From a virus (taxonomy: Duplodnaviria > Heunggongvirae > Uroviricota > Caudoviricetes), in the IMG/VR virus record IMGVR_UViG_2561511241_000003: a DNA stretch of 37,150 nucleotides. The stretch is one strand, 5' to 3'. Positions 1-27,441 of this stretch are shown one piece after another. A program made the position numbers and the translations under genes. The notes beneath the pieces are model-generated. The model searched no databases. It was not told the origin of the DNA and saw nothing but the letters and a program-made list of their open reading frames with translations. How positions within the stretch are numbered: the first letter of the stretch is position 1; each line of letters begins with the position of its first letter.

Positions 1-381
1 TTATGAGTTCTGGAATTCTTCTGCCCGTCTTTCCAGCTCAGCCATGAAAGAAGTTTTGGCTTTTTCGTGAGCATCTGGGGCCATGATGCTGATGATTTGT
101 ATATTGTCATAATCCATCCAGTGCCTTGTATAAACCAGATAGATATTTGAAGTTCTGTCTATTTGGGCTTTGCTTTTCTTCCATGGTGGTTCTGACGGTA
201 GTCTTATGTGTAATTTATATACAAACGAACCACATAATCTTGCGTTATCTTCCCACTGCCCTTCATTGCCGAATCTGTCAGGGAGAACACCGGTATTTAA
301 CCAGTTTTCCAGAGCCTTTCCGTAAACTTTTGCAATGTCCTGGTATTCAACATCTTTATGAATGCTTACTTTGCTTGCCAT
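1..381 (-). CDS. YafO-family toxin-like protein (126 aa)
   Basis: Complete ORF with stop at 1-3. Motifs GVLPDRFG, HIRLP, IYLVYT and a C-terminal IISIMAPDAHEKAK block match my recollection of E. coli YafO (DGVLPDIFGRD, HIHL, HLVY, IAILKPEPHK). Start overlaps the stop of the upstream ORF, consistent with an operon. Confidence 0.5.
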   Translation of the reverse strand: MASKVSIHKDVEYQDIAKVYGKALENWLNTGVLPDRFGNEGQWEDNARLCGSFVYKLHIRLPSEPPWKKSKAQIDRTSNIYLVYTRHWMDYDNIQIISIMAPDAHEKAKTSFMAELERRAEEFQNS

Positions 382-1019
382 CAGGAAAACTCCGGTGCCG
401 GGAGTCCCATGTTTTTATGCTCGGCAATAATCATTGCTTTCACATTTCCGTCAGACAGCGTATTGCCTAGGCTGGTCGTTTTGTCTGGTGCGGTGCTTCG
501 TTTGATGGCGTTGATGGCATCACGAGCGATAAACTCTCCCTGCGCAATTGCCCGACCAAAACGAACCAGTTTATTGCGATAGGCGATTCTTTGCTCCATG
601 CTATCCGGATACATTTTTGCCAGGTTATCCGGATCCATTACAATTTTGACAGCCTCTTTAACACGGCTGTGCTGCTTAAGTGACTCTTCGCATATTTTTA
701 TGATTTTTGCGGTTTTGTCAGCAAACAGAGCTCCCTTGCCTCTGTTCTGTCGTTCTTCAATGACTGCATTGAGCGCGGCACGCATGTTGTCATTCAGCCC
801 GTTGATATATTCAATAGCTTCTTCAAGAGGCAGAAACACCTGACCATCATGATGCTCAAATGTAAGCATTGAAACCACTCTGGCGTGTGTCACGGATTCA
901 ATAACTGTTGTTGGTAGTATCGTGCTTTTAGCTGGCACCGGAGCCAGTGATGCTGTCAGAGCTGTAGCAATAGCAGCAATGGCAGCAGACTTTGATTTTT
1001 GTTTCATAATGCACTCCAC
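381..1019 (-). CDS. hypothetical protein, putative partner of the toxin-like gene; start uncertain (Met1, Met5 or later)
   Basis: 212-aa ORF co-oriented with and immediately upstream of the toxin-like gene. N-terminus MKQKSKSAAIAAIATALTASLAPVPA is hydrophobic and signal-peptide-like. No motif recognised. Much larger than classical YafN/Phd-type antitoxins. Confidence 0.35.
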   Translation of the reverse strand: MECIMKQKSKSAAIAAIATALTASLAPVPAKSTILPTTVIESVTHARVVSMLTFEHHDGQVFLPLEEAIEYINGLNDNMRAALNAVIEERQNRGKGALFADKTAKIIKICEESLKQHSRVKEAVKIVMDPDNLAKMYPDSMEQRIAYRNKLVRFGRAIAQGEFIARDAINAIKRSTAPDKTTSLGNTLSDGNVKAMIIAEHKNMGLPAPEFS

Positions 1020-1405
1020 AGGTTGATGTGTTCAGCATATCGCAAATAGCAGCTTGTATAAAGCAACGCCACATCAGCAGTGATCGTTTTACGCGCTTTT
1101 CTTCTTGGATTTGCTGGTCGGTTTTTCTGCGCCAGCTTCCGTCAGTCGTGACATGCTGAAACACTTCTGCACGCTGTTGTTGCAATTGTTCGCCGGGCTT
1201 TACATCAGGCAGGTTATGACCGATGGGTAAGATTTGCCTGATAACAGGCTTATCCGGGCGTCCTTCAATGTTGGATATTTCCACGATGGTGCCTGCTGGC
1301 GGGTAGGCAAAACATCCCGCCTCACTGCCAGCTATGGGGCGGGGGAGTGGTACTGCCGGGTAAATGGGTGTATCGCTTTTTTTGTTACTCCGGCAATTCT
1401 GTCTG

Positions 1406-1666
1406 TTAATTCTGAGGTAAAGGCAAACTCATCTGATTGTTTCCCCTGTGTGAAGCTGGCAGATCATGCCACGGGATACCTTCTGAAGAGTGAACGCCGG
1501 AGGCGTGTTTTGATGTGAATTTATGGAAAGCTTCCAGTGTTGAGAAGCATACGCCGCATTCCAGATTGTTACACTGGTAATACTTTTGCCGCACGGTGTT
1601 TGAATCATTTTCTGGACGACTGGTGCGGATACGGGCAGATGCGCCACAAAGCGGACAACGGAACAT
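1406..1666 (-). CDS. ogr: Ogr/Delta-family zinc-finger late-gene transcription activator
   Basis: N-terminus MFRCPLCG...YYQCNNLECGVCF has the Cys4 pattern of P2 Ogr. Lies directly downstream of gene D, as in P2. Confidence 0.85.
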   Translation of the reverse strand: MFRCPLCGASARIRTSRPENDSNTVRQKYYQCNNLECGVCFSTLEAFHKFTSKHASGVHSSEGIPWHDLPASHRGNNQMSLPLPQN

Positions 1667-1708
1667 AGCGACCTCCCTTAACGTGGTGCTGCCGCTATTC
1701 TAAGTTGC

Positions 1709-2941
1709 TCACTCTGTTTCCGCTATCCATTCCGGGATTTTTGCCTCAAGCTCAAGCTGCGTGGTAAAGCCGCTGTTATCAATGGTGTGCTCGGCTTTTG
1801 CAATAATCCAGTCCTGATTATCAATCTCGCTTTTAAATCCTGTTACCGTGCCATGCATTTCGGGGTAGAGTTCTGCGCGTCCACGTGCCAGTGTGATGGA
1901 GAATGATGCGGCTCCGCGTTGTAGCTGCTGCCACTTTGCCGCCGCAGCGCGTCTTGCTGCCTGTTCGTTCTGATAAGTCTTGCGTAACACAAACACGTTG
2001 CCTTCCGCACCTTCCATATAGTCGCCTTCACGGCTACTGCTTTTCTCCATTTTCGGTTTACGGCGTTTCACGCTGACTTTTTTCTTTTTCCCGTAATTAA
2101 GATCAAGCCAGTAAGCGCGTACCCCCGTATACGCTTCGCGGTCAGCAATGCGGAACTGATGGCGATCGCCACTGCTGCGCGTGATGGCGAACGATGGCAA
2201 CGGCTGGCCCTGTGCGTTCACGCCACCGCCTGGCATAATGAATAACAGATTACCGCTTTTTACCGTGGTGATTGCGCCCAGCATTTCCGCCATGCGCGTA
2301 AGAAAGGACATGTCGCTTTCTTCGGTCTGGTCGGCGTGGTCGATTTCGATATCCATCAGCATTTCGCTGATTTGCGGTTTCAGACCGTACCGATGAGCGA
2401 TGGCGGATACCACACGCTCAACGGTCACATCATGCCAGGACACCTCACGTTTAACGTTAAATTCATCCCGAAAATCTGCGCTTCTGGCTGAAACAGTCAG
2501 CCTGTCCGGCGGTCCTTCGTGAGCGATTTCATCAACAATGTAAGTGCCTTTTTCTGTCAGCGGTTCTCCTTTCCAGCCAATGAGAACCGTCAGGCGCGCG
2601 CCCCGTGGCGGTAGCTGCAACTGACCATCTGCATCATCCAGCGTGATGGTGAGCTGGTCCGCCTCAAATCCCCGGTTGTCGGTCAGTGACAGGCTCATCA
2701 GGCGCTCTGCCACGCCTGACAGCGTTTTACCCTCCGCGAGAATATCAAAATCCGGCATTTTCACGGGGTCTGTGCCCTGACTGAGCAATTGCATGGTGGT
2801 GTCGGTCATCTGTTCCCTCCCTGTGCGGCATGGTCGCATGTGCGTGCGGAGGGGGTTACTGCTTTTTGTTGTCGCCGTGGCGGGAGAACGTCGCAGGGGT
2901 GAGATTACGCGCGTGGTGGGTGATGATTGTTGCCGAATCAT
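1709..2941 (-). CDS. D: tail protein D (late control gene D family)
   Basis: 410-aa ORF of the size and position of P2 gpD, next to ogr. Assigned from P2 synteny and length. Confidence 0.85.
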   Translation of the reverse strand: MIRQQSSPTTRVISPLRRSPATATTKSSNPLRTHMRPCRTGREQMTDTTMQLLSQGTDPVKMPDFDILAEGKTLSGVAERLMSLSLTDNRGFEADQLTITLDDADGQLQLPPRGARLTVLIGWKGEPLTEKGTYIVDEIAHEGPPDRLTVSARSADFRDEFNVKREVSWHDVTVERVVSAIAHRYGLKPQISEMLMDIEIDHADQTEESDMSFLTRMAEMLGAITTVKSGNLLFIMPGGGVNAQGQPLPSFAITRSSGDRHQFRIADREAYTGVRAYWLDLNYGKKKKVSVKRRKPKMEKSSSREGDYMEGAEGNVFVLRKTYQNEQAARRAAAAKWQQLQRGAASFSITLARGRAELYPEMHGTVTGFKSEIDNQDWIIAKAEHTIDNSGFTTQLELEAKIPEWIAETE

Positions 2942-2966
2942 TTAACGGATACAAGGGGCTGAAGCT

Positions 2967-4151
2967 ATGAGTGAAACTCGTTTTCATGGCGCCCGCGTTA
3001 CGGAAAGTACCGACCTGGTAACAGCAATTAACGACGTTGATTCCAGCGTTATCGGTATCGTGGCAACGGCGGACGATGCGGACGCGAAGCTGTTCCCGCT
3101 GAACAAGCCTGCATTAGTGACCCGCGTCAATGACGTGCTGGGAAAATGCGGGACAACGGGGACGCTGTACCGTGCGCTGAAACCCATTGCAGACCAGGTG
3201 AGCACAAAGGTGATCGTCGTTCGCGTGGCTGAACACAAAGAAGAAGACGGAAAAACACAGGATCAACTGGTTATTGGTGGTTCTGAATCCGACGGCAGCT
3301 ATACGGGGATGTATGCGCTGCTTGTTGCAGAGCAGGATGAAAGCATCGGATACCGTCCGCGTATTCTGGCCGCGCCGGGGCTGGACACGGAGGCGGTGAC
3401 AAAATCCCTGTGCGTGATTGCAGGTAAACTGCGCGCGTTTGTGTATGCCTCCTGTCATGGCTGTAACACGATGGCTGAAGCCATTGCATACCGTGAAAAA
3501 TTCAACGAACGCGAGCTGATGCTCCTGTGGCCGGACTTCATCGCTTACAACCCGAAAAGTGGCGAGAATGAGGTTTTCCCCGCGCCAGCCTATGCGTGCG
3601 GCCTTCGTGCGTACATTGACCATGAGCAGGGCTGGCACAAATCGCTGTCCAACGTTCCGGTCAAAAATGTGCTGGGGATGTCCAGGCATGTGTTCTGGTC
3701 GTTGCAGGCTGCTGACAGCGATGCCAACAGCCTCAACAACAAAGAAATCACAACCATCATTCGCCGCAACGGGTTCCGCTTCTGGGGCAACCGCACACCG
3801 GAAACGAATGCCTACATCTTTGAGGTGTATACCCGAACCGCACAGGTGCTGGCTGATTCAATTGCGGAAGCGCAGTTTGAAACCATCGACAGTCCACTGA
3901 CGCCCGCGAACGTGAAGGATGTTATCAGTGCCATCAGGGCAAAACTGGATTCGCTGGTTACTGCCGGGAAACTGATTGGCGCATCGTGCTGGTATGACAT
4001 CGTGGATAACAGCACCACAGAATTACGACAGGGGCGCGTGCGTATTCGCTATAAATATACGCCCGTTCCTCCGCTGGAAGATATGGAGCTTTACCAGGCG
4101 TTCACTGATGAGTTCTTTGGTCCTGCATTTGCAGTGCTTGGAGGTGCTTAA
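2967..4151 (+). CDS. FI: contractile tail sheath protein FI
   Basis: 394 aa with motifs DADAKLFPLNKP, KLRAFVY, RELMLLWPDF, EQGWHKSLSNV, IRRNGFRFWGNRT, YTRTAQV and YKYTPVPPLE that match P2 FI as I recall it. SD AAGGGG lies 9 nt upstream of the ATG. Confidence 0.92.
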   Translation: MSETRFHGARVTESTDLVTAINDVDSSVIGIVATADDADAKLFPLNKPALVTRVNDVLGKCGTTGTLYRALKPIADQVSTKVIVVRVAEHKEEDGKTQDQLVIGGSESDGSYTGMYALLVAEQDESIGYRPRILAAPGLDTEAVTKSLCVIAGKLRAFVYASCHGCNTMAEAIAYREKFNERELMLLWPDFIAYNPKSGENEVFPAPAYACGLRAYIDHEQGWHKSLSNVPVKNVLGMSRHVFWSLQAADSDANSLNNKEITTIIRRNGFRFWGNRTPETNAYIFEVYTRTAQVLADSIAEAQFETIDSPLTPANVKDVISAIRAKLDSLVTAGKLIGASCWYDIVDNSTTELRQGRVRIRYKYTPVPPLEDMELYQAFTDEFFGPAFAVLGGA

Positions 4152-4663
4152 TGGCCGTACCAAAACATCTTCGTTTTTTTACGCTGTTTGTGGATGGTGA
4201 AAATGAAGTGGGTAAGGTGACGTCTGTCACCCCGCCTAAACTGACGCGTAAAACCGACAGCTATCGTGGTGGTGGCATGCTGGGAGCGGTGAGTATCGAC
4301 CTCGGCCTGGACGATTCCGCGCTTGATGCGAGTTTTGTCATGGGTGGCGCCGTTCGTGCGCTGTTCCTTAAATATGGCGGAACAATGGACGGCACGCTGC
4401 TGCGTTTTGCGGGTGAATACTACACCGATGCAGAAAGCGACCTGTATGAAATCGAGATGCGCGGGCGTGTGACGGAAATTGATATGGGGGAGGCCAAACA
4501 GGGCGAAGCCACGTCACACACTTACGCTGTCAAAAACACCTACTACAAGCTGAGTATTAACGATCGTCCGGTGTGGGAAATTGACCTGGTGAACCACATC
4601 TACCGGAAGGATGGCAAGGACATTGTACCCGACCGCATCCGCTCCGCGCTCGGGCTCGGCTGA
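4151..4663 (+). CDS. FII: tail tube protein FII
   Basis: 170 aa directly after the sheath gene with ATGA-type overlap. Size and position match P2 FII. Confidence 0.9.
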   Translation: MAVPKHLRFFTLFVDGENEVGKVTSVTPPKLTRKTDSYRGGGMLGAVSIDLGLDDSALDASFVMGGAVRALFLKYGGTMDGTLLRFAGEYYTDAESDLYEIEMRGRVTEIDMGEAKQGEATSHTYAVKNTYYKLSINDRPVWEIDLVNHIYRKDGKDIVPDRIRSALGLG

Positions 4664-4717
4664 TAAGTAATATGCAGGCGGCGCAGTGCGTCGCCTCTGA
4701 CTGAAAGGAGTTTTCTG

Positions 4718-5086
4718 ATGAAAGAGACGAAAAATACCGATACTGAAAACGCTGTGGTGGTTGCTGATACTGCGAAAGAAACCAGCGAGCGCGGCGTAAA
4801 ACTTACCCAGCCAATTGAGCGAGGCGACGAAAAAATCACGTATGTGGAGATCACCGGGGCTATTGAGCAGGCTGGATCCCTGCGTGGTCTGTCGCTGTCT
4901 GATGTGCTGAGTCTGAAAGCGGAATCCATGTTTACGCTGTTGTCACGCGTGACATCACCGCGACTGGATGAAGTGACGATCAAAAAAATGGCATCCCGTG
5001 ACTTTATTCAGTTATGTGTGGTTGCCGTAAATTTTTTGAGCGGTGCGGACTCTGGCGGGAAGAACGAACAGGCGACGGAAGCCTGA
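4718..5086 (+). CDS. E: tail assembly chaperone E
   Basis: 122-aa ORF between the tube and tape-measure genes. Contains the slippery heptamer TTTTTTG near its 3' end. Confidence 0.8.
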   Translation: MKETKNTDTENAVVVADTAKETSERGVKLTQPIERGDEKITYVEITGAIEQAGSLRGLSLSDVLSLKAESMFTLLSRVTSPRLDEVTIKKMASRDFIQLCVVAVNFLSGADSGGKNEQATEA

Positions 5087-5250
5087 TCACGGTTGTGTGC
5101 TTTGAGCACATAGAAGACTTTGTGGCAGATATTGCCGTTATTTTTAACTGGTCGCCCGCCGAAATCTTCATGATGACGCCCGGCGAAGTGGTTAGCTGGC
5201 GTGAGCGGGCGGCACTTCGCAGTGGGAATGCAGACAATGAAGACTCTTGA
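4718..5250 (+). CDS. E+E' tail assembly chaperone made by programmed -1 frameshift
   Basis: The -1 frame is open from the slippery site to 5250 (track ORF 5014..5250) and overlaps the start of T. This is the conserved arrangement in P2-like and many other tail gene clusters. Confidence 0.65.
5033..5039 (+). other. programmed -1 ribosomal frameshift slippery site TTTTTTG
   Basis: AAT TTT TTG in the E frame. The -1 frame reads KFFER and continues open to 5250. Confidence 0.6.
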
Positions 5251-8038
5251 CATTCGGGTCGCCTTCAGTGCTGTTGACAGGCTGACCCGGCCAGCCGAAA
5301 ACGCCCGCCGCCTGATGGGGCGGCTTGGTGACTCCATCCAGCAAACGCAGGGGGCAATCAAAAATCTCGAGCGTCAGGCGCGTTCATTTGAGCGCGCCCG
5401 CGATGCTGTCAGTAAAGCGGATGCTGGCATCGTGAAAGCACGACGCCAGCTTAACGCCCTTCATCAGTTACAACGCACGGGTACTGTGCTCAGCGAAAAA
5501 CAACAAAGGCTGATGCAGCAGTTAAGCACCCGGCTTGAACGCCTGAATGAATCGCGCACGCGGGAAATTCAGAAAATGCGGGAGCTTGGCGGAGAGCTTA
5601 AACGCCACGGTATTTCCCTGACAGGCAGCGATAACACCATCCAGCAGGCCATCAGACGCACCGAACAGTACAACAACCAGCTTGAACGCGAACGACAGGC
5701 GCTTGCGCGTGTAACGCGGGCGCGTGAGCAGTATTCACGCGCGCAGGAAACAGCGGGAAAACTGAAAACGGGTGGTGCGCTGGCAACTGGTGCGGCAGCG
5801 GCTGGCGGCTATGCTGCCGGGCGTTTTTTGCAGCCCGCTATCGGATTCGGGAAAGAGATGTCCCGTGTGCAGGCGCTGACGCGAATTGACCAGAACAGCC
5901 CGCAGTTTAAGGCGCTGCGTGAGCAGGCGCTAAAGCTCGGCTCTGAAACGCAGTTTACTGCGAGTGATGCCGCCAGTGGGCAGGCATTTCTTGCTATGGC
6001 TGGCTTCACACCAGAAGCCATTCAGGCTGCGCTTCCCGGCGTGCTGAGCATGGCAACGGCTGGCGGTATGGACCTTGGCGAGACGGCGGATATTGGCTCA
6101 AATATCCTGACGCAGTTCGGTCTCTCTGCTGACCAGATGGACCGGGTCGGCGACACACTTACTGCGGCGTTTACCCGTACTAACACCGACCTTCGCGCGC
6201 TGGGCGAAACCATGAAATATGCAGGTCCGGTGGCGGGTAAGCTGGGAATATCGCTGGAGCAGGCCGCAGCGATGGCGGGCGTGCTGGCGAATATGGGTAT
6301 CAGAGGGAGTGATGCCGGGACGGCAATGCGTGCCAGCCTTGCTCGTCTGGCATCACCGCCAAAGGCGGCAGCAGAGGCGCTGAAAGAGCTTGGTGTGGCT
6401 GTCTCTGATGCGAACGGCAAAATGCGCCCGATGGAGGATGTGCTGGCCGACCTTTATAAAGCCACCCGCAAATACGGGGAAGTTGACCGGGTATCGTTCT
6501 TTAAGGACATAGCCGGAGAAGAGGCCTTCACGTCATTTATGGCCCTCGTTGATGCGGCAGGTGACGGTTCTCTGCCCAAGCTGAGAAAAGAACTTGAAGG
6601 CGCACGCGGTGAGGCTGAACGCACGGCAAAGGTTATGGCCAATAACCTTGATGGCGACCTGAGATCACTCGGCAGTGCATGGGAGGGGCTGCGTATCCGC
6701 ATTGCGGATCTGATTGACGGTCCGCTGCGCTCTGTCACGCAGTGGCTCACTCGGGTGGTCTCAAAGGTGACGGAGCTGGCGCAGGCCCATCCGGCACTGA
6801 CGCGCCAGCTACTGATTGCAGGCGGTGCGCTGCTGGCAATGACTGCAACGGTTGGCTCGTTGTCACTGGCTCTTGGGGTGCTTGCTGGCCCGCTGGCAAA
6901 ACTGCGTCTTGGTTTTTCCCTCCTGACCGGATCAATGAATGCTGTCAGGGTCCTGCCAGCGCTGTGGGGAATGGTGGCGGGTTCCGTCTCTTTACTTGGA
7001 GGCGCTATCGGGGCGTTGTTCAGCCCGGTCGGTCTTATCGTGGCTGCGCTTGCCGGAGCTGCCGCTCTCATCTGGAAATACTGGGACCCAATCAGGGCAT
7101 TTTTTGCCGGGGTGTTCAGCGGGATTATGGAGCGGCTGGCCCCGTTACGCGAAACCTTTGAACGGTTTGGCCCTGTTTTCGAACTAGTTCGTGATGGCGT
7201 GATTCAGGTCTTTAACTGGTTTACATCGCTGCTGTCACCGATGGAATCCAGTAAGGAAACGCTGGATAAATGCACCAGTGCTGGCGAGGTGTTCGGCAAC
7301 GTTCTTGGCGGTGCGTTACAGCTTGTCCTGACGCCTGCAAAAATGCTGCTGGATACGCTGGCATGGATACTGGAAAAACTTGGCGTCCTTCCAGATGAAG
7401 CGGAAAGGGCGAGAAAGAAAATCGAAGACGCGCAGCGTGCGGCCATTCTTCAGGACAAGGTTGCTTTGCTTCAGGGGGACCTGGCAAAAATCAATCCGCC
7501 GAAATCTGCGGAAACAGGGACCGGAGGCGATAAGCCTAAAGACAACAAGCCGCTCACGGACAACAACACTGGCACGCTGCGCAGGCTCAGCAAAATTGCA
7601 GATAACACAGGCAAGCTGGTTGATGAGACGAAAAAGCGTATCGGCCCCGGTGATATTGTCTTTAAGAACCTGCCCCGTGCGCTTGCTGTTCGCGGGGAGT
7701 GGCAGGAGCGGAAGATTGCGCAGGTCAGTAAGCCTGCTTCCGCAATCAACATCACACCCGTGGTCCCGGCTCCGTTATCTCCGGTGTTGCCCCCTGTTGT
7801 TGCAGCAAGCTCCCGTCCGGTCGTGGAGGCCGCACGTGCGCCAGTTGCGCCCGTTTCCGCATCTTCCCGCAGCCGGGAGACTGCGGCACCCGAATTTGGT
7901 GGTGAAATTCATGTCCATCTGCATAACGTTGTTACGCAGAATCCCCGCGAACTGGCGAAACTGGTCGGCGAAATGGTCAGGGCAGAACTGGAGCGGCGTA
8001 CCCGTGCCGGGCGTGGTAGCTTTTATGATAAAGAGTAA
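5201..8038 (+). CDS. T: tail tape measure protein T
   Basis: 945-aa ORF with coiled-coil N-terminal region, Gly/Ala-rich hydrophobic central segment and Pro/Ala-rich C-terminal part. Sits between E/E' and U. Confidence 0.9.
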   Translation: MSGRHFAVGMQTMKTLDIRVAFSAVDRLTRPAENARRLMGRLGDSIQQTQGAIKNLERQARSFERARDAVSKADAGIVKARRQLNALHQLQRTGTVLSEKQQRLMQQLSTRLERLNESRTREIQKMRELGGELKRHGISLTGSDNTIQQAIRRTEQYNNQLERERQALARVTRAREQYSRAQETAGKLKTGGALATGAAAAGGYAAGRFLQPAIGFGKEMSRVQALTRIDQNSPQFKALREQALKLGSETQFTASDAASGQAFLAMAGFTPEAIQAALPGVLSMATAGGMDLGETADIGSNILTQFGLSADQMDRVGDTLTAAFTRTNTDLRALGETMKYAGPVAGKLGISLEQAAAMAGVLANMGIRGSDAGTAMRASLARLASPPKAAAEALKELGVAVSDANGKMRPMEDVLADLYKATRKYGEVDRVSFFKDIAGEEAFTSFMALVDAAGDGSLPKLRKELEGARGEAERTAKVMANNLDGDLRSLGSAWEGLRIRIADLIDGPLRSVTQWLTRVVSKVTELAQAHPALTRQLLIAGGALLAMTATVGSLSLALGVLAGPLAKLRLGFSLLTGSMNAVRVLPALWGMVAGSVSLLGGAIGALFSPVGLIVAALAGAAALIWKYWDPIRAFFAGVFSGIMERLAPLRETFERFGPVFELVRDGVIQVFNWFTSLLSPMESSKETLDKCTSAGEVFGNVLGGALQLVLTPAKMLLDTLAWILEKLGVLPDEAERARKKIEDAQRAAILQDKVALLQGDLAKINPPKSAETGTGGDKPKDNKPLTDNNTGTLRRLSKIADNTGKLVDETKKRIGPGDIVFKNLPRALAVRGEWQERKIAQVSKPASAINITPVVPAPLSPVLPPVVAASSRPVVEAARAPVAPVSASSRSRETAAPEFGGEIHVHLHNVVTQNPRELAKLVGEMVRAELERRTRAGRGSFYDKE

Positions 8039-8049
8039 GGAGTCGTGCC

Positions 8050-8538
8050 ATGATGATGATCTACGGCATGTTTGTTTTTGAGTTGCGCACATTACCGCAT
8101 CAGCAGTTACAGCAAAACAAAAGCTGGCGACATGTGAAAAACGAGCGCGTTAACCGTTCAGCAAGCTGGCAGTATATCGGTGCAGGTGATGATCGCATCG
8201 TTCTTTCCGGCGTGCTTTATCCTGAGATTACAGGCGGCGAAGTGTCGCTGTCGCTGCTGGCCACGCAGGCGTATGCGGGACGCCCGTGGCCTCTGATTGA
8301 TGGCGTCGGGCAGATTTACGGCATGTATGTTCTGACTGAAACGAGCACGACCCGCTCTGAACTGGATCGCTACGGGAAAGCGAAAAAGATAGAGTTTTCC
8401 CTGACCCTTGAACGCTGTGATGAGGATTTGCGGGAGCGCCTGCAATCCTCATCGTTCAGTGATATGCTGTCCGGTCTTAAAGATAAGGTGACATCATCCC
8501 TTAACAATGTGGTCAGCTCAGTTAAAGGGGTGTTCTGA
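8050..8538 (+). CDS. U: tail protein U
   Basis: 162-aa ORF directly after T. Size and position match P2 gpU. Confidence 0.85.
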   Translation: MMMIYGMFVFELRTLPHQQLQQNKSWRHVKNERVNRSASWQYIGAGDDRIVLSGVLYPEITGGEVSLSLLATQAYAGRPWPLIDGVGQIYGMYVLTETSTTRSELDRYGKAKKIEFSLTLERCDEDLRERLQSSSFSDMLSGLKDKVTSSLNNVVSSVKGVF

Positions 8539-8546
8539 TTTAACGT

Positions 8547-8579
8547 AAAAACCGCTAATGTTCAGATTAGCGGTTTTTT
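8547..8579. terminator. bidirectional hairpin between convergent U and invertase genes
   Basis: AAAAACCGCTAAT-GTTCAG-ATTAGCGGTTTTTT: a perfect 13-bp stem with A-run and T-run flanks. The right arm overlaps the invertase stop codon. Confidence 0.5.
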
Positions 8580-9175
8580 GTTTCCTGAGTATTCTCAATT
8601 ATTCCTCCGGGTTGCGTGTCACCTACAGGGTGATAACGATAAATCGTCGATATACCGATGTCGTAAATTATGGCCAGCTGTTTTCTGTCGTGGCCGTTTT
8701 TAATCAGCCTCGCTATTTGCTCATGTTGCTCTTTTGTCAGTTTCGGGCGACGCCCACCAATTCGCCCCTGTGCGCGGGCTGCTGCCAGTCCGGCCAGTGT
8801 ACGCTCTACAATTAATTCACGTTCCATTTCAGCCAGGGCGCCCATCACGTGGAAGAAAAATCGTCCCATTGGGGTACTGGTATCAATTGAATCCGTCAGA
8901 CTACGAAAATTGACACCTTTTTTCCGCAATTCCTCAATCAGTGTGATCAGGTGTTTCATGCTTCTGCCCAGCCTGTCCAGTTTCCAGACAACGAGCGTAT
9001 CCCCCGCTGATAACGTTCTGAGCAGTTTTTTCAATCCCGGTCTGGCTGATTTTGTTCCGCTGATTTTATCTTCAAAAATCAGTTCACATCCTGCGCTATT
9101 GAGCGCATTGCGTTGCAAATCCGTGTTCTGGTCATTTGTTGATACGCGAATATAGCCAATTTGCATAAAAAGCAT
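8567..9175 (-). CDS. serine-recombinase DNA invertase (Hin/Gin/Cin/Pin family)
   Basis: N-terminal IGYIRVSTNDQ catalytic-serine motif, resolvase fold motifs (VVWKLDRLGRS) and C-terminal HTH (IGISTIYRY). Adjacent to the invertible tail-fibre segment. Confidence 0.92.
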   Translation of the reverse strand: MLFMQIGYIRVSTNDQNTDLQRNALNSAGCELIFEDKISGTKSARPGLKKLLRTLSAGDTLVVWKLDRLGRSMKHLITLIEELRKKGVNFRSLTDSIDTSTPMGRFFFHVMGALAEMERELIVERTLAGLAAARAQGRIGGRRPKLTKEQHEQIARLIKNGHDRKQLAIIYDIGISTIYRYHPVGDTQPGGIIENTQETKNR

Positions 9176-9194
9176 CCTGTTTCTGTTAGTAAAA

Positions 9195-17869: not shown

Positions 17870-18204
17870 TCGTCCTTCTCCTTCACCCTGCGATTAAAGG
17901 CCGCAATAACCTTGTCGCGTGCTTTCTCTGCACCCATAAACCCGATTGATGCGCCGATAAACGTCACGGCATCTTCAGGAAACCCGAAGAAGCGCAACGA
18001 CCCGGCCACGGCCATGGCAAGAACGCCGCACGCCAGCGATCCCGTTACGGTCTGAACCAGTGTTCGTCCGTCATAAAGACTCATCAGCGCGGAAATGCTG
18101 ACCGCCGCGCCTACTGCATACACCGTTGGCAGGTGGTCAAAGAGCCACGCAATAACCTGCTCTGTGATCCCTGTTTGAATGGTGCTCACTGCTACTCCCC
18201 CCAC
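17866..18204 (-). CDS. holin
   Basis: 112 aa with three hydrophobic segments and a charged C-terminal tail (EKARDKVIAAFNRRVKEKDE). Sits between X and the endolysin. Confidence 0.6.
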   Translation of the reverse strand: MGGVAVSTIQTGITEQVIAWLFDHLPTVYAVGAAVSISALMSLYDGRTLVQTVTGSLACGVLAMAVAGSLRFFGFPEDAVTFIGASIGFMGAEKARDKVIAAFNRRVKEKDE

Positions 18205-18392
18205 AACTGAATCATTTCTCGTTTCTTCTTCTCCGGCTCCGGCATCTCAACTTCCTGCCCGGCGTCCAGAAATACCTGCTGACAGAGTCCGGGGTTGGCA
18301 TCCAGCACCTTTTCGGTGACGCCCTGCGTCGTGCCGTAGTACCGGAAACAGAGCGAATCCACGGTGTCGCCTTCCAGTGCCTTCACTTTCAT
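18192..18392 (-). CDS. X: tail protein X (LysM-like)
   Basis: Track ORF 18192..18425. Likely start is MKVKALEGDTVDSLCFRYYG, which resembles the P2 gpX N-terminus and overlaps the L stop. Confidence 0.8.
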   Translation of the reverse strand: MKVKALEGDTVDSLCFRYYGTTQGVTEKVLDANPGLCQQVFLDAGQEVEMPEPEKKKREMIQLWGE

Positions 18393-18895
18393 CAGCACAA
18401 CTCCGCAAAGATTCGCGGGCGGCACAGAATGTCAGAGATGGCCCAGCTCACATCACGCCACAAATCCGATGTCTGTATATCCAGAGCGTCCGCCCGGCGG
18501 TCGCCCTTGTCCGTTGTGTCCGCATCACGGTAACGCTCCAGAATCAGGGCGCGCGTTGCGGTATAAACAGCATTGCGCCAGTGCCAGAGATTGACGCTTT
18601 CTCCGTTAATTACGGGTGCCGGAACATCGGCCAGCGTCTGATGGCCAGCTGCCTGCTGTTCCTGCTGCCATGCTTCCAGCTCGCGGGTAACGTGTGCCAC
18701 AGCCCCGGTGGCAGTATGCAGCAGGCGGGAGGTGGTCACGCGGCCCGGCAGTCGTACCGCCAGACGCAGCTCGCGCAGCACAATATCCGGCCAGAATGCA
18801 CCCGCTGAAATGCGGGTATCGCCATCATCGGTATCGGTGATGTCGTCCTCTGCGGGTCTGGGTTCAGTTCTGGCAACCATACTCATGGGGTTCAC
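18392..18895 (-). CDS. L: head completion/stabilisation protein L
   Basis: 167 aa, size and position of P2 gpL. Confidence 0.85.
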   Translation of the reverse strand: MNPMSMVARTEPRPAEDDITDTDDGDTRISAGAFWPDIVLRELRLAVRLPGRVTTSRLLHTATGAVAHVTRELEAWQQEQQAAGHQTLADVPAPVINGESVNLWHWRNAVYTATRALILERYRDADTTDKGDRRADALDIQTSDLWRDVSWAISDILCRPRIFAELC

Positions 18896-18988
18896 TCCTG
18901 AAAAAAATCGGGCGGTGGGTGCGCGGTGTAAACGGTCACGGAGTCAAACCGGAACACCGCGCACGCCGCCCGCTGACGGGGTCAGTCG

Positions 18989-19789
18989 TTAACCGCGCTT
19001 CGCCTTCTGCGTCGCGGTGGTTTTTCGTGTTGCAGGCTTCCGCGTTGTCTTTTTACTTTTGCTGCTTTCGTCCTGCGCCTGCTGTGCGCTGGCGTCTTCT
19101 GGTTCGGCTGCGGAATCGGCTTTTTTCAGGGCGCGGGAAAGGGTTGCAATCTCGCGTTTCACACCTGCGTTCGGGTTCAGGTGCATCGCTTCGCGCAGCA
19201 GCTTCAGTGATAAGGCCATGTTGTCTGCATCGGTCAGACCACGATGGGCAAAGGCGCACGCCTTGCATAATTTGGCGCGCACTTCGTCCGGCATGTCCTG
19301 GTCGGTGACAATCTCCCGGAGGGTATCCAGTGGTTCGATAAAGGCGGACAAATCCGCGTCGGCATCCGTCCCGGCCTGCGTCAGTACCGGGTTGCAGATT
19401 TCTTCGGTCAGTACCGTGGCAGCAGTACGGCCAAAGTTATCCGGCATGATGAGGTTGTGACGGACCACATATGCACCAATACGCAGCGCCAGCGGAAGAT
19501 CGCCGCAGTCAATCGCCCACACCATCAGCGTGGCAATCACTTCATCCTGCTGCCCGCCGTCAGCCTCCAGCGTTCCCTCAATCCAGCCGGAAAAGTCCGG
19601 CAACAACTCTTTTTTGATGGCGGCTTTCGCGCTTCTGGCCTGTACGCCCTTAAGCCGGGCCTGTGCCAGACGCAGACGATACAGCACCTCTTCATGCGCG
19701 GTACGCGCGGCGTGGTCCACGCCTTCTTTCGCCCGGCCTGCGCGCTGTGCCATCACGTTCTGCCAGTGTTGCTGTGCAGGAGTAATCAT
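18989..19789 (-). CDS. M: terminase endonuclease (small) subunit M
   Basis: 266 aa with basic C-terminal tail, between N and L as in P2. Confidence 0.85.
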   Translation of the reverse strand: MITPAQQHWQNVMAQRAGRAKEGVDHAARTAHEEVLYRLRLAQARLKGVQARSAKAAIKKELLPDFSGWIEGTLEADGGQQDEVIATLMVWAIDCGDLPLALRIGAYVVRHNLIMPDNFGRTAATVLTEEICNPVLTQAGTDADADLSAFIEPLDTLREIVTDQDMPDEVRAKLCKACAFAHRGLTDADNMALSLKLLREAMHLNPNAGVKREIATLSRALKKADSAAEPEDASAQQAQDESSKSKKTTRKPATRKTTATQKAKRG

Positions 19790-19834
19790 TTTTTCTCTCC
19801 GTTACAGGCGGGCATGATGCCCGCCGTGAGTTGA

Positions 19835-20887
19835 TTAGCTGTCGGCGAACTTCAGGCCAGTGACCATCGCGCACTTGCCATAGTCTTCAACGACATAAGC
19901 GTCATTGATGGACTGGTAGGTGGCGATGCGGTTGTATTCCGGCTCGTCTTTCATCAGGCGACGCATTGTTCCTTTCTGCCAGTAAATCGACAGGTTGTTG
20001 AACGAGGTGATCAGCATCGTTGAATCCGGGAAGAACGGCGCAAGGAATACATCCAGTCCGCCAATGGCGCGCGATGACAGGATGAGCTGTCCGGCAAGTA
20101 ATTCCGCATTGGGATTCTGGCCGCTGATGCTGTTCAGCACGGGCAGACGCAGCGAGTTAAACAGGTTGCGCCCCATGATCACCACGAGGTCGTCAGCTTC
20201 CTTGTGCCATTCATCCAGCAGGGATGAGCGCGCGTCCTGTACCAGTGCATCAGCGTTCGCATACTTACCCGCGTGCGCCACGGTGTTGTCCATGTTGCGG
20301 GAGGTCAGCGTCACGTCATTCATTACGCGCTCGCTGGCGTCGGTTCTGATGTGCTCCAGCCATCCCACGTTAACGTCCTGAAGCAGCTTGTTGGTGCTGA
20401 AGTTGGACTCATCTGCGTGAGACGTGCCGTTGAAACCGATCATGATGCGGTCAAGCGCCACCTGCCGGGCAATCTGTGTGCTGACGCGTGACTGAAAATC
20501 AGGGTGTGCCGCCCAGGCATCAAGCTGCGGATACGAAATAAACGTGTCGTAGTTCACCTGTTCGCACTGATATTTGCGGTTTTTCAGATCAACCACGTTA
20601 TTCGGGTTACGGCGTTTTGTGCCGTCATAACTGGTATTCGTGCGCGCAATCGGCCCGGTGGTGTCCAGGAGGATTTTTTCGCCTTTCTGGTCGGTCACAC
20701 CGAACACGTTAATTTTTTTTGTAAATTCAGTGCTCTCCTTTACTGCGTTTTCAAAACGCTGCTGCACCGAGGGTTCCACGGTAAATCGCGATACCAGTGC
20801 AGATACCGGGATGTTGTTAAGCGACGCCTGCTGCGCCATATAGCAACCCAGCTTGTTGCGGGTAATATCTGACATCACCAGATTCAT
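19835..20887 (-). CDS. N: major capsid protein N
   Basis: 350 aa, size and position of P2 gpN. Confidence 0.9.
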   Translation of the reverse strand: MNLVMSDITRNKLGCYMAQQASLNNIPVSALVSRFTVEPSVQQRFENAVKESTEFTKKINVFGVTDQKGEKILLDTTGPIARTNTSYDGTKRRNPNNVVDLKNRKYQCEQVNYDTFISYPQLDAWAAHPDFQSRVSTQIARQVALDRIMIGFNGTSHADESNFSTNKLLQDVNVGWLEHIRTDASERVMNDVTLTSRNMDNTVAHAGKYANADALVQDARSSLLDEWHKEADDLVVIMGRNLFNSLRLPVLNSISGQNPNAELLAGQLILSSRAIGGLDVFLAPFFPDSTMLITSFNNLSIYWQKGTMRRLMKDEPEYNRIATYQSINDAYVVEDYGKCAMVTGLKFADS

Positions 20888-20910
20888 AAAAAATTTGCTC
20901 CTTTGTCTTA

Positions 20911-21780
20911 TCAGAAGTCAGCCAGCTGGTCGGAGGCTGCGCCCGTTGCGGTGAAGCGGTTCTGCGGATCGCCGTCCTGCGTGCGCAGTTTTTCCTTCAG
21001 TGCTGCCAGCTCTGTGGTCAGTGACGTGATTTTCTGGCGGTCCTGCTGATGGCGGGTTTCCAGCACATTAAAACGGTCGATAATGTCGGCCTGTGACGTT
21101 GCGACGCCTTCCACCGCTTCCTGAATACGGGAGAAACTGGCGTCATCCGCTTTGCGGCCACGACCAATAATCCCCATTACGCGGTTAAACCACTGGGTGC
21201 CTTCTTCCTGGCGTTGTTCTGCCATTTCGACGATTTCAGACTCGATGGCTTCGGAAATGAGCGGTGCCTCACCCTGGATACTGTTGAACGTCATCACCGC
21301 CTGACGCTGCTGTGCCGTGAATTTCAGGCGCTCAGTGCCCAGGCTTGCCGGGGTGTCGGTCATCGCCAGCCCGACCAGATAGGCGCGCCCGTTAACGGAG
21401 AACTGCGGGTGCAGTTCGATACTGGAATAGATTTTCTTGCCGTCAGCGACAAGCTGCTTCATGCGCTCGGTCGGTTCGATTTCTGCATACAACGCAGTAC
21501 GTCCGGCCAGCGGGCCTTCCGTAATATCTTCCGTACTCAGTGCGGTGACATCGCCCATTGCGGAAAATTCGCTTGACGGGCATGGCGAGAGATAGTGCTC
21601 AACGTTCACGCGGGCAGCGTAAACATCCGGGTTGAAGTTCTCGGCGGCTTCACGCAGATGTACCGGGCTGATTTCACGGCCATCAACAGTTGATCCGGAG
21701 ACAGCCACGCGAAACTTTTTGCGGGATGTCTTTTTTTCATTAGCCATAGTTTTTGCCCCTCTGACTGGTTCTTCAGTCAT
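20911..21780 (-). CDS. O: capsid scaffolding protein O
   Basis: 289 aa, first gene of the leftward head operon, divergent from P. Confidence 0.88.
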   Translation of the reverse strand: MTEEPVRGAKTMANEKKTSRKKFRVAVSGSTVDGREISPVHLREAAENFNPDVYAARVNVEHYLSPCPSSEFSAMGDVTALSTEDITEGPLAGRTALYAEIEPTERMKQLVADGKKIYSSIELHPQFSVNGRAYLVGLAMTDTPASLGTERLKFTAQQRQAVMTFNSIQGEAPLISEAIESEIVEMAEQRQEEGTQWFNRVMGIIGRGRKADDASFSRIQEAVEGVATSQADIIDRFNVLETRHQQDRQKITSLTTELAALKEKLRTQDGDPQNRFTATGAASDQLADF

Positions 21781-21901
21781 GATGGCAAAGCGTAACAGGC
21801 TGATACAAAGGGCTTTTGTTGTAAGAAAACAGCCAGAACAGGGGGTTAAGGAGAACGGTTTCGCGCGCGGGTAATCTTCCTGTAATTACTCAGGGGGAGC
21901 A
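21781..21901. promoter_or_regulatory. divergent late promoter region between O and P
   Basis: 121-bp intergenic region between divergent head operons. I could not pin down a clean Ogr-type TGT-N12-ACA dyad, so assigned by position only. Confidence 0.35.
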
Positions 21902-23653
21902 ATGATTCAGGACGCTTTTGTGCGCCAGCGTGCGCGGCAACTTTACTGGCAGGGTTATCCGCCCGCAGAAATATCACGTCTGATGGGAATAAACCCGAAC
22001 ACGATTTATGCGTGGAAAAAACGCGACCAGTGGGATGAAACGCCACCTGTGCAGCGTGTCACGCAGTCCATCGATGCGCGCCTCATCCAGCTTACTGAAA
22101 AACAGAATAAAACAGGCGGTGACTTTAAGGAAATAGACCTGCTGACCCGGCAGCTTAAAAAGCTGCATGATGGCCAGCCGGATGTGATGGCCGCAGGAAA
22201 GAAAGGCCGGGCGAAAAAACTCAAAAATCATTTCACGCCGGAACAGATTGCCGCACTGCGGGAAAAAATCATCAGCAGGCTGGAGTGGCATCAGCGGGGC
22301 TGGTTTGACTCCCTGACCCTTTGCAGGGAAGCAGGGATACGTAACAGGATGATCCTGAAATCCCGACAGATTGGGGCGACCTGGTATTTTGCACAGGAAG
22401 CTCTGCTGATGGCGCTGCGTGACGATGTGGCGCAACCTTACCAGCGTAACCAGATTTTTTTGTCTGCGTCGCGTCGTCAGGCGTTCCAGTTTAAAAGCAT
22501 TATTCAGAAGGCCGCGGCTGAAGTTGATGTGGAGCTGAAAGGGGGCGATAAAATCATCCTCTCCAACGGCGCAGAGCTGCATTTTCTCGGCACTTCTGCT
22601 GCGTCGGCACAGTCCTATACGGGCAATTTTTATTTTGATGAATTCTTCTGGGTCTGTCGCTTTGCTGAACTGCGCAAGGTGGCTGGCGCTATGGCAACCC
22701 TCAGCGGACTGCGGCGCACCTACTTCTCCACGCCATCCACCGAAACGCACGAGGCATACGCCTACTGGAACGGCGACCGCTGGAACGAGAAAAAGGCCAC
22801 GCATAAACGCCAGCGTTTTTCTGTGGACTGGAAAACGCTGCATAACGGGCTTATCTGCCCTGACCGGACGTGGCGGCAAATTGTCACGCTGGAAGATGTG
22901 GTTAATCACGGCTGGAAACACACCGATATTGATGAAATTCGTGATGAAAACACCGAAGACGAGTTCCTCAATCTTTATATGTGTGAGTTTGTCCGCGAAG
23001 GGGAATCGGCATTTAACCTGAATATCCTGATTGGCTGTGGTGTTGACGGATACGACGACTGGAAAGACTGGAAACCTTTTGCTCCCCGCCCGATGGGGAA
23101 TCGTCCGGTATGGATTGGGTATGACGCAAACGGCAGCAGTGGCAACGGCGACAGCGGCGCTGTGTCCGTGGTGGTTCCTCCGGCTGTTCCTGGTGGCCGT
23201 TTTCGAACGGTGGAGACGCGACGCGTTCAGGGGCTGGAGATTGAAGAACAGGCCAGAGTCATTGAAGAGTTCACGTGTCGCTACAACGTGGAACACATCG
23301 GCATTGATGTGACAGGCGGGAACGGGGAGGCTGTTTATCAGATAGTGAAACGGTTTTTCCCTGCTGCTATTCCGTACACCTTCACGCTGTCATCAAAACG
23401 GTCGCTGGTACTGAAAATGCTGCAAATAATGCGCGCCGGGCGGTGGGAATACGATCGCGCCGAACGCGAGCTGGTCGCAGCCTTTAACGCCGTGCGTAAG
23501 GTGAAAACACCGGGCGGCTTTATCACTTACGAAACGGACCGCGCGAGGGGGATCAGCCACGGCGACCTTGCGTGGGCAACCATGCTTGCTGTCATTAACG
23601 AACCGATTGGCGGCGAAGGAGAAAACGAGCGTTTCACGGTTATGGAGTTCTGA
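21902..23653 (+). CDS. P: terminase ATPase (large) subunit P
   Basis: 583 aa, size and position of P2 gpP. Confidence 0.9.
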   Translation: MIQDAFVRQRARQLYWQGYPPAEISRLMGINPNTIYAWKKRDQWDETPPVQRVTQSIDARLIQLTEKQNKTGGDFKEIDLLTRQLKKLHDGQPDVMAAGKKGRAKKLKNHFTPEQIAALREKIISRLEWHQRGWFDSLTLCREAGIRNRMILKSRQIGATWYFAQEALLMALRDDVAQPYQRNQIFLSASRRQAFQFKSIIQKAAAEVDVELKGGDKIILSNGAELHFLGTSAASAQSYTGNFYFDEFFWVCRFAELRKVAGAMATLSGLRRTYFSTPSTETHEAYAYWNGDRWNEKKATHKRQRFSVDWKTLHNGLICPDRTWRQIVTLEDVVNHGWKHTDIDEIRDENTEDEFLNLYMCEFVREGESAFNLNILIGCGVDGYDDWKDWKPFAPRPMGNRPVWIGYDANGSSGNGDSGAVSVVVPPAVPGGRFRTVETRRVQGLEIEEQARVIEEFTCRYNVEHIGIDVTGGNGEAVYQIVKRFFPAAIPYTFTLSSKRSLVLKMLQIMRAGRWEYDRAERELVAAFNAVRKVKTPGGFITYETDRARGISHGDLAWATMLAVINEPIGGEGENERFTVMEF

Positions 23654-24699
23654 TGAGCAGAAAAAATAAAAAAGTGCGCATGAGTTCACGCATTGATCTC
23701 GCTGATGCGCTCAGGAAAGAATCGTCGCTCAGTGCATTCACATTTGATGGGCCTTATCGCCTGATCGGGCATGACCTGCTGGATAATATGTACTGTGCTG
23801 ATAACGGGCGGTGGTATGAAACCCCGGTGGACTGGTACGGCCTGGCAAGAGCTGCCCGGCAAACGTCCTGGCATCAGTCTGCGCTTTACTTTAAGCGCAA
23901 TGTATTACTCGGTTGCTACATCCCGCACCCGCTGCTTTCCCGGCAGGATTTCTCGGCGCTGGCGCTGGACTGGTTTGTGTTCGGTAACGCATTCCTTGAG
24001 CTTCGAAGCAATATGCTCGGCGAACCGCTTAAATTACGGCACGCCCTGGCGAAATACATGCGACGCGGAAGCGATCTTGAATCATGGTGGTATGTGCAGG
24101 ATGGCAAGGACGCGTTCCAGTTTCGCCCTGGCAAAGTGTGCCACCTGATGAATCCGGATATTAACCAGGAAATCTACGGCATGCCGGAATATCTTGGCGC
24201 ATTACTCTCGGCCAGCCTTTCTCATTCGGCGGACATGTTCAGAAAACTGTACTACGACAACGGATCCCACGCCGGGTGCATCATCTACATCGGTGCAGCG
24301 CAGGTAAACCGCGAAAGCATGGACTCCCTGAAAGAAACGCTACAGGGGGCACGTGGTGGTGGTGCGTTTAAAAACGTGCTCATTCATGCGCCCAACGGGG
24401 GCAAAGAGGGGGTGCAAATTTTGCCGTTCCAGCAGATCACCGCAAAAGATGAGTTCATGAATGTTAAGGCGGCATCCCGTGATGATGTGCTGGCTGCGCA
24501 CCGCGTTCCGCCGCAACTGATGGGGGCGATGCCGGGCGAAAAAAGTGCGTTTGGTGATGTGGAGAAGGCCGCGCGGGTTTACGCAATTAACGAGCTGATG
24601 CCCGTCATGGAGGCCATGAAGCACATCAATGACTGGCTTGGCGAAGAGGTGATCCGCTTTAACCCTTACGCACTGTTAGACACCCAGCCCACATCCTGA
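23653..24699 (+). CDS. Q: portal protein Q
   Basis: 348 aa, translationally coupled to P (ATGA overlap). Size and position match P2 gpQ. Confidence 0.9.
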   Translation: MSRKNKKVRMSSRIDLADALRKESSLSAFTFDGPYRLIGHDLLDNMYCADNGRWYETPVDWYGLARAARQTSWHQSALYFKRNVLLGCYIPHPLLSRQDFSALALDWFVFGNAFLELRSNMLGEPLKLRHALAKYMRRGSDLESWWYVQDGKDAFQFRPGKVCHLMNPDINQEIYGMPEYLGALLSASLSHSADMFRKLYYDNGSHAGCIIYIGAAQVNRESMDSLKETLQGARGGGAFKNVLIHAPNGGKEGVQILPFQQITAKDEFMNVKAASRDDVLAAHRVPPQLMGAMPGEKSAFGDVEKAARVYAINELMPVMEAMKHINDWLGEEVIRFNPYALLDTQPTS

Positions 24700-24725
24700 C
24701 GCGCTTCGCTTGTCTGCTGCTTCGC

Positions 24726-27418: not shown

Positions 27419-27441
27419 ACATACTCCTTATCTATGCTGTA

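Follow-up and report, generated by a model that had tools for sequence, protein, structure and literature searches.

A tail gene block inverted relative to the P2 late-gene order in a P88-like prophage and its enterobacterial relatives

The window studied here, i.e., the complete stretch of 37,150 nucleotides of IMG/VR virus record IMGVR_UViG_2561511241_000003 (Caudoviricetes), contains a P2-like prophage in which a block of tail genes, FI-FII-E/E'-T-U, is oriented opposite to the genes on either side of it. On one side, two genes are located on the minus strand. The first, ogr (1406-1666), encodes an ogr/Delta-like late activator of 86 amino acids that is 36% identical to its P2 counterpart and 100% identical to that of phage P88, and that is annotated as ogr/Delta-like zinc finger family protein by the Prokaryotic Genome Annotation Pipeline (PGAP). 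The second encodes gpD (1709-2809), the baseplate hub or late control protein D, with 366 amino acids, a match to Pfam family Phage_GPD and identities of 49 and 99.7% to gpD from P2 and P88, respectively. The block itself resides on the plus strand and begins with the genes for the tail sheath protein gpFI (2967-4151; Pfam sheath domains, 45% identity to P2 FI and 95% to P88) and the tail tube protein gpFII (4151-4663; Phage_tube, E 1.6e-45, 41% identity to P2 FII). These are followed by the tail assembly chaperone pair gpE/E' (4718-5250, with E at 4718-5086 and E' at about 5095-5250), of which E is 32% identical to P2 E while the equivalent of 5095-5250 is annotated as 'GpE family phage tail protein' by PGAP, by the gene for the tape measure protein gpT (5201-8038, or from the equivalent of 5237 according to PGAP; PhageMin_Tail, 32% identity to P2 T) and by that for gpU (8050-8538; Phage_P2_GpU, E 6e-39, 46% identity to P2 U). 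Beyond the block, the minus strand carries a serine DNA invertase gene of the Pin/Cin/Gin type (8567-9175; Pfam Resolvase and HTH_7), a tail-fibre switch region, the genes H/I/J/W/V and, further on, the lysis genes as well as N and O, with P and Q again on the plus strand.

By its sequence, the window is a P88-like prophage (family Peduoviridae, probably genus Xuanwuvirus) and an ordinary member of its group. From ogr to the invertase gene (1400-9160) it is colinear with P88 at 90-93% nucleotide identity, and its late-gene proteins are 80-100% identical to those of P88. A genus as recognized by the International Committee on Taxonomy of Viruses (ICTV) is delimited by about 70% identity over the whole genome. 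The tail and late-gene module typical of Peduoviridae is present, with counterparts of gpFI, FII, E, T, U, D and Ogr alongside baseplate and head genes of the P2 type; tblastn retrieved homologues of P2 D, FI, FII, E, T, U, H, I, J, W, V, N, O, P, Q and ogr at 32-61% identity. In P2, the homologous genes (32-49% identical) form the F operon, which runs FI-FII-E-E'-T-U-D from promoter pF and is followed by ogr; D directly follows U in the same orientation, as the two genes overlap by one base in the annotation, and D is part of the F transcript. The window deviates from this architecture in that FI to U are inverted and diverge from D on the minus strand. This orientation relative to D, ogr and H to V and relative to the order in P2 had already been described in the initial annotation, and Pfam, tblastn and the P2 annotation bear it out.

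According to another part of the initial annotation, only 25 bp separate D from FI, which would leave too little space for a promoter of FI and would isolate D. This argument depends on a wrongly assigned start of D. The value of 25 bp arose because D had been taken as the longest open reading frame (ORF; 1709-2941, 410 amino acids), which begins with an ATG at 2941 that lacks a Shine-Dalgarno sequence. The ATG at 2809 is preceded by the Shine-Dalgarno sequence GGGAGGG and yields the 366-residue form. Alignment with P2 gpD begins only at residue 19 of this shorter form, the extension of 44 codons is without homology to P2 gpD, and it is not conserved, as an in-frame stop occurs within fewer than 44 codons in 37 of 58 related loci. 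In P88 and in Escherichia coli TW08637, D is likewise annotated with 1101 nt (366 amino acids). Judged from these features, D starts at ATG 2809, which leaves a D/FI gap of 157 bp (2810-2966); the median across 58 inverted loci is 158 bp. The choice of the longest ORF for gpD thus conceals a 157-bp region of presumed regulatory function. The gap is nearly identical in P88 (NC_026014) and the other members of its genus, P884B11, 500465-2 and Shae_phiSM, all of which agree with the window in genes, strands and junctions.

Public annotations of this region are inconsistent (loci L009, 20310-21154, and L002, 2294-4745). PGAP cuts gpD to 792 nt plus a pseudo-ORF in ETEC1749 and RM9872-C1, gpD is labeled 'ogr' and the sheath 'late control gene D' in Shae_phiSM, and the annotation of P88 places a hypothetical ORF of 132 nt within the D/FI gap. 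On the other side of D, the spacer between D and ogr (1667-1708, 42 bp in the window) serves as a cargo insertion point in relatives. It holds a GmrSD nuclease in RM9872-C1 and a YecA-family protein in TW08637 (L091, 825-2408; L092, 857-1996), an insert of 1.4 kb in L011, and a major facilitator superfamily transporter and a hydrolase in other strains, such that ogr is 1-2 kb away from D in cargo-bearing relatives. A location of the GmrSD and YecA cargo inside the D/FI gap was considered and rejected, since the cargo is situated between D and ogr.

The inverted arrangement is widespread. With megablast, colinear matches of 90-93% identity across both junctions were obtained for the isolated or induced phages P88, P884B11, 500465-2, Shae_phiSM, Chuche and PhiR44_2, and both junctions are colinear in at least nine phage records; the annotations of P88 and Shae_phiSM exhibit the same strand pattern as the window. 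Among 5,426 complete E. coli genomes, 1,106 contain a single same-strand place that covers at least 80% of window positions 1400-9300, and matches covering at least 89% of this interval necessarily include D. None of the matches inspected, i.e., those in E. coli genomes and all related phage records, featured the block in the opposite orientation relative to D. Close relatives therefore share the gene order, a finding that the initial annotation had itself named as one speaking against its reading. The block is also inverted in Salmonella phage SEN5 (Senquatrovirus, gpD 63% identical to that of the window) and Klebsiella phage Kp4871-3 (Reginaelenavirus, 70%), where it is likewise located between G and D, while the canonical order is found in Felsduovirus RE2010, a Kapieceevirus and P2, with gpD about 49-53% identical.

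To delimit the two arrangements, six gpD proteins were aligned, one genome per species was scanned, and each of the best 80 of 340 loci was scored for whether FI, FII, E, T and U point in the same direction as D or against it. The block is inverted in every one of the 56 classifiable loci whose gpD is 61-99% identical to that of the window, the canonical order is found in every one of the 15 with 47-53% identity, and none of the nine partial loci contradicts this split. The inverted set spans about 25 genera of the Enterobacterales, including Salmonella, Citrobacter, Klebsiella, Enterobacter, Kosakonia, Pantoea, Erwinia, Brenneria and Pectobacterium as well as Serratia, Edwardsiella, Providencia, Morganella, Xenorhabdus, Photorhabdus, Hafnia and Yersinia. 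The inverted-block clade, as defined here, comprises P2-like phages in which FI to U diverge from D across an interval of roughly 150-180 bp and whose gpD is at least about 60% identical to that of other members, and the window falls within it. The inverted clade includes Xuanwuvirus, Reginaelenavirus, Senquatrovirus and many prophages. Across 71 loci, the identity of D is tightly correlated with that of FI, FII and U (r = 0.90-0.97), i.e., D and the block have descended together. The layout is compatible with normal tail assembly, since P88 forms plaques with a burst size of about 65 and has contractile tails as seen by electron microscopy (PMC5285337); these properties imply that the inverted layout allows sufficient expression of D and FI in P88. 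One locus stands apart by its label: L011 (NZ_JBQPOM010000071.1), a contig named as Vagococcus sp., a Firmicute, contains a Xuanwuvirus prophage with 99% identical gpD, and this label most likely reflects contamination or a mislabeled assembly.

The D/FI gap (2810-2966) contains elements suggestive of a bidirectional, Ogr-dependent late promoter region, i.e., a conserved size, a candidate activator site and mirrored -10 elements. The site is a dyad of the P2 type, TGT-N12-AGA (2870-2887, centre 2878.5), with the extended form TTTTTGTTGT-N12-AGAAC (2863-2889). It is preserved in the other members of the P88 genus. The string TTGT-N12-AGAAC occurs exactly twice in the window, once here and once in the gap between the divergent genes O and P (21819-21839, centre 21828.5), where it corresponds to the single pO/pP site of P2. 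In P2, the three annotated activator-binding sites all carry TGTTGT-N12, and according to the annotation pO and pP share one of them, with their transcription starts located 55.5 bp to either side of its centre. A scan of the window for exact TGT-N12-ACA returned nothing in the D/FI gap and no overall enrichment (five occurrences vs. 8.9 expected); the AGA variant was recognized because of the identical motif in the O/P gap and the orthologous sites in related phages. Among the 58 inverted loci, TGT-N12-ACA is exact in 35, deviates by one mismatch in 18 and by two in five, and in the one-mismatch loci listed it reads TGT-N12-AGA. SEN5 and Kp4871-3 possess gaps of similar size with exact TGT-N12-ACA in the middle. 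A scan for generic sigma-70 promoters found none in the gap, which is expected because late promoters are activator-dependent.

The position of the site is conserved as well. In the 58 inverted loci, a median of 82.5 bp separates its centre from the FI ATG, and the D start is about 78.5 bp away. For P2 pF, the distance to FI is 82.5 bp as well (about 82-88 bp for the activator site with the same TGTTGT half-site), and in nine of 15 canonical loci it is 79.5-83.5 bp. As the distance to FI is alike in canonical loci, P2 pF and inverted loci, the block has probably moved together with its promoter. When 37 non-redundant inverted loci were anchored on the centre of the site, conserved A, A and T appeared outside the dyad at +44.5, +47.5 and +48.5, and the mirror positions -44.5, -47.5 and -48.5 proved conserved too. 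This yields an xAxxAT -10 element on each strand, +/-43.5-48.5 bp from the centre. In the window, the corresponding sequences are GATGAT (2922-2927, plus strand) for the FI operon, with a predicted start at about 2934, and GACCAT (2835-2830, minus strand) for D and possibly ogr, with a predicted start at about 2823. Two features of P2-type late promoters are thus found, a partial dyad near -55, with one mismatch (AGA) in the window and relative to predicted start positions, and, without a good -35, a -10 element at a distance of about 44-49 bp from the middle of the site. In both the D/FI gap and the P2 pP/pO pair, one dyad site lies midway between divergent late genes, and the geometry with -10 elements at about +/-44-49 and starts at +/-55.5 is annotated in P2 and predicted in the window. 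The two differ in location, D/FI instead of P/O, and the function proposed for the D/FI gap derives from conservation. We consider it rather probable that the single dyad-symmetric Ogr site at 2870-2887 represents a second bidirectional late promoter of the pP/pO type, serving FI to U in one direction and D, perhaps with ogr, in the other. The start of gpO is probably the ATG at 21747 (Shine-Dalgarno AGAGGGG; N-terminus MANEKK, like P2 gpO) and not the longest-ORF ATG at 21780, which would overlap the predicted pO start.

At the other end of the block, 28 bp (8539-8566) separate the stop codons of U and the invertase gene, exactly as initially noted. The two genes converge on a predicted bidirectional intrinsic terminator (8547-8578) with a 13-bp stem and a U-run on each strand (z = -4.9 and -5.0 vs. 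shuffled sequences). Next to the invertase gene lies a true switch of the Gin/Cin/Pin/Hin kind, an invertible tail-fibre segment (9230-11055) that is bounded by inverted crossover sites, CGTTGGTTTGGGAGAAG at 9230-9246 on the plus strand and CCTTGGTTTGGGAGAAG at 11039-11055 on the minus strand. The arms comprise 18 nt and are 94% complementary, and between them lie the coding region for an alternative C-terminus of the fibre and two Caudo_TAP (assembly chaperone) genes. This segment is the real substrate of the invertase. The FI-U block differs from such segments: it lacks inverted crossover sites at its ends, consists of 5.6 kb of essential genes and is present in a single orientation in all relatives inspected, near-identical genomes included.

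Three other explanations of the inverted block deserve consideration. That the block was mis-oriented during assembly and the true genome follows the P2 order, as had been proposed initially, has a practically negligible probability. Nothing speaks positively for it. The sole related case is a publicly available assembly of the near-identical strain ETEC1749; a large inversion sets it apart from the window, with the break located in gene H and outside this block. The same two junctions recur in independently sequenced phages (at least nine colinear records), in 1,106 complete E. coli genomes and in 56 loci from other species, and the D/FI junction holds conserved elements of functional appearance. 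The rearrangement suspected initially is real in the evolutionary sense, i.e., as an inversion relative to P2, but its attribution to the adjacent serine invertase acting on secondary (pseudo-cix) sites, which would make the inversion recent or ongoing and the block switchable, did not hold up and we regard it as very improbable. The invertase gene does lie only 28 bp from U, and enzymes of this family can join distant sites, as illustrated by the probably invertase-mediated inversion of about 75 kb between two prophages at the H crossover site in ETEC1749. However, a search allowing three mismatches found no crossover half-site in the window beyond the tail-fibre pair, and a repeat search revealed no inverted and no notable direct repeats at the block ends. 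The 8-mer ATTTAACG, which the initial annotation had correctly reported in direct orientation at both junctions and at 8538-8545 (the other copy is located at 2940-2947, not 2939-2946), has three further copies in the window as reverse complement. A direct 8-mer is shared by 8.7% of random pairs of 75/78-bp windows; the shared 8-mer is thus at chance level and carries no information, and site-specific inversion between inverted sites would not leave a direct repeat. Orientation polymorphism was not seen among the matches inspected. Furthermore, an invertase gene adjoins U in only about eight of the 56 inverted loci, i.e., it is missing there in about 48 of them, and SEN5 and Kp4871-3 have neither an invertase nor an invertible fibre segment beside U, whereas in canonical-order prophages (L010, L075 and L086) the invertase gene can occupy the corresponding position, with the fibre genes on one side and FI on the other. 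Because most inverted loci do without the invertase and canonical loci can have it, the enzyme and the inversion of the block are unrelated.

Exchange of tail modules is known among phages, and an ancestor of the clade may have received FI-U and the associated promoter as a cassette from a different P2-like phage, inserted the opposite way round. The present-day gene order by itself fits such a module replacement as well as an inversion in place. The divergence of the block from P2 (32-46% identity) is, however, in line with that of the flanking genes D, V, W, J, I and H (44-61%), and block identity tracks D identity tightly across the 71 loci. Any swap must therefore pre-date the radiation of the clade and have involved an equally distant donor, which renders this alternative unlikely, albeit far less so than the other two.

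We regard it as very probable that the FI-U block together with pF inverted once in the ancestor of the clade and has been fixed since, and that the window is an ordinary member. According to this scenario, FI-FII-E/E'-T-U turned around, late promoter included, in the ancestor from which a large enterobacterial clade of P2-like phages descended, an event that would have set the dyad-symmetric Ogr/Delta site of pF (centre 2878.5) back-to-back with D. One activator site, whose centre precedes either start by about 55 bp, would then probably give rise to two divergent late transcripts, one running from FI to U with a start near 2934 and an end at the bidirectional terminator at 8547-8578, the other covering D, probably with ogr, from a start near 2823. 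Cut off from the F transcript, D, which has its own Shine-Dalgarno sequence and presumably its own promoter, would have regained late control by sharing the symmetric activator site of pF and would thereby copy the design of P2 pP/pO, while the neighboring serine invertase would flip only the tail-fibre segment at 9230-11055.

Several points weigh against this interpretation. Start sites, Ogr dependence and co-transcription of D and ogr have been deduced from nucleotide sequence, the site in the window is one mismatch off TGT-N12-ACA and was missed by the scan for the exact consensus, and the predicted leader of D is short (about 14 nt). We infer a single ancestral event from the identity split and not from a rooted phylogeny, and with the best 80 of 340 loci scored, the boundary of the clade is thinly sampled. 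Finally, an IS3-family insertion sequence is present in tail-completion gene S (see below), so the prophage in the window may not make tails at all.

The arrangement as such is already in the public record in the form of reference genomes of three ICTV genera. A search of the literature on P88, SEN4/SEN5, Xuanwuvirus and inversions in Peduoviridae or P2-like phages, including a 2026 survey of defence hotspots in P2-like phages, returned no account of an inversion of the block or of a shared promoter, and the recognition of these two features is the only, mildly new element. The published variable region beside the sheath gene of the xenorhabdicin tailocin was considered as a link, with no obvious match to the layout described here. 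The P2 gene order is not universal among P2-like phages, as about one-fifth of the complete E. coli genomes carry the alternative layout, and an inverted layout should not be flagged as misassembly, defective prophage or invertase activity. A modest positive outcome is comparative evidence that D and FI-U may be regulated from one activator site in the inverted clade. If this is true, the locus would be a clean natural case of operon rewiring through reuse of a symmetric activator site, by which a cut-off gene gains late control with little new sequence, and a phage operon could be split without loss of co-regulation.

A few further observations concern the invertase and its crossover sites. 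RE-2010, with canonical order, contains a remnant of a serine invertase gene between the fibre genes and FI (L006, 3171-3395; 56% identity over about 60 amino acids) that is annotated as 'DNA binding protein'. This suggests that the position of the invertase at the fibre/FI junction may be old and the gene often lost. In E. coli ETEC1749 (NZ_CP122712.1), window positions 1-11053 match 3512024-3523075 on the plus strand with 99.98% identity, while positions 11060-24700 match 3434116-3447752 on the opposite strand. In this assembly, the halves (L009 and L010) are joined, directly at the H crossover site (11039-11056) or a few bases from it, each to the complementary half of a second prophage, a P2-like element of canonical order near ybjL. 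The assembly therefore differs by a chromosomal inversion of about 75 kb between the two prophages, which was probably brought about by the invertase.

The window differs from the P88 genus in the variable part of the tail fibre and in H (43-47% identity), and two insertions are its own. One is the IS3-family transposase gene (rve, HTH_21 and HTH_Tnp_1) at 14740-15954, which splits gene S into pieces at 16008-16484 and 14568-14774; a Phage_tail_S match is confined to the N-terminal third, the other piece is a partial virion morphogenesis protein according to PGAP, and the prophage is probably defective for tail completion through this insertion. The other is the two-gene anti-phage defence system IetAS, consisting of IetA (AAA ATPase, 373 amino acids) and IetS (subtilase, 741 amino acids) at 25193-28563 on the minus strand, in the cos-proximal cargo hotspot that is occupied by old and tin in P2. 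At the ogr end of the window, a YafO-family type II toxin gene (1-381) adjoins an uncharacterized ORF of 212 amino acids (381-1019), both on the minus strand, and in ETEC1749 this pair is located directly beside serS.

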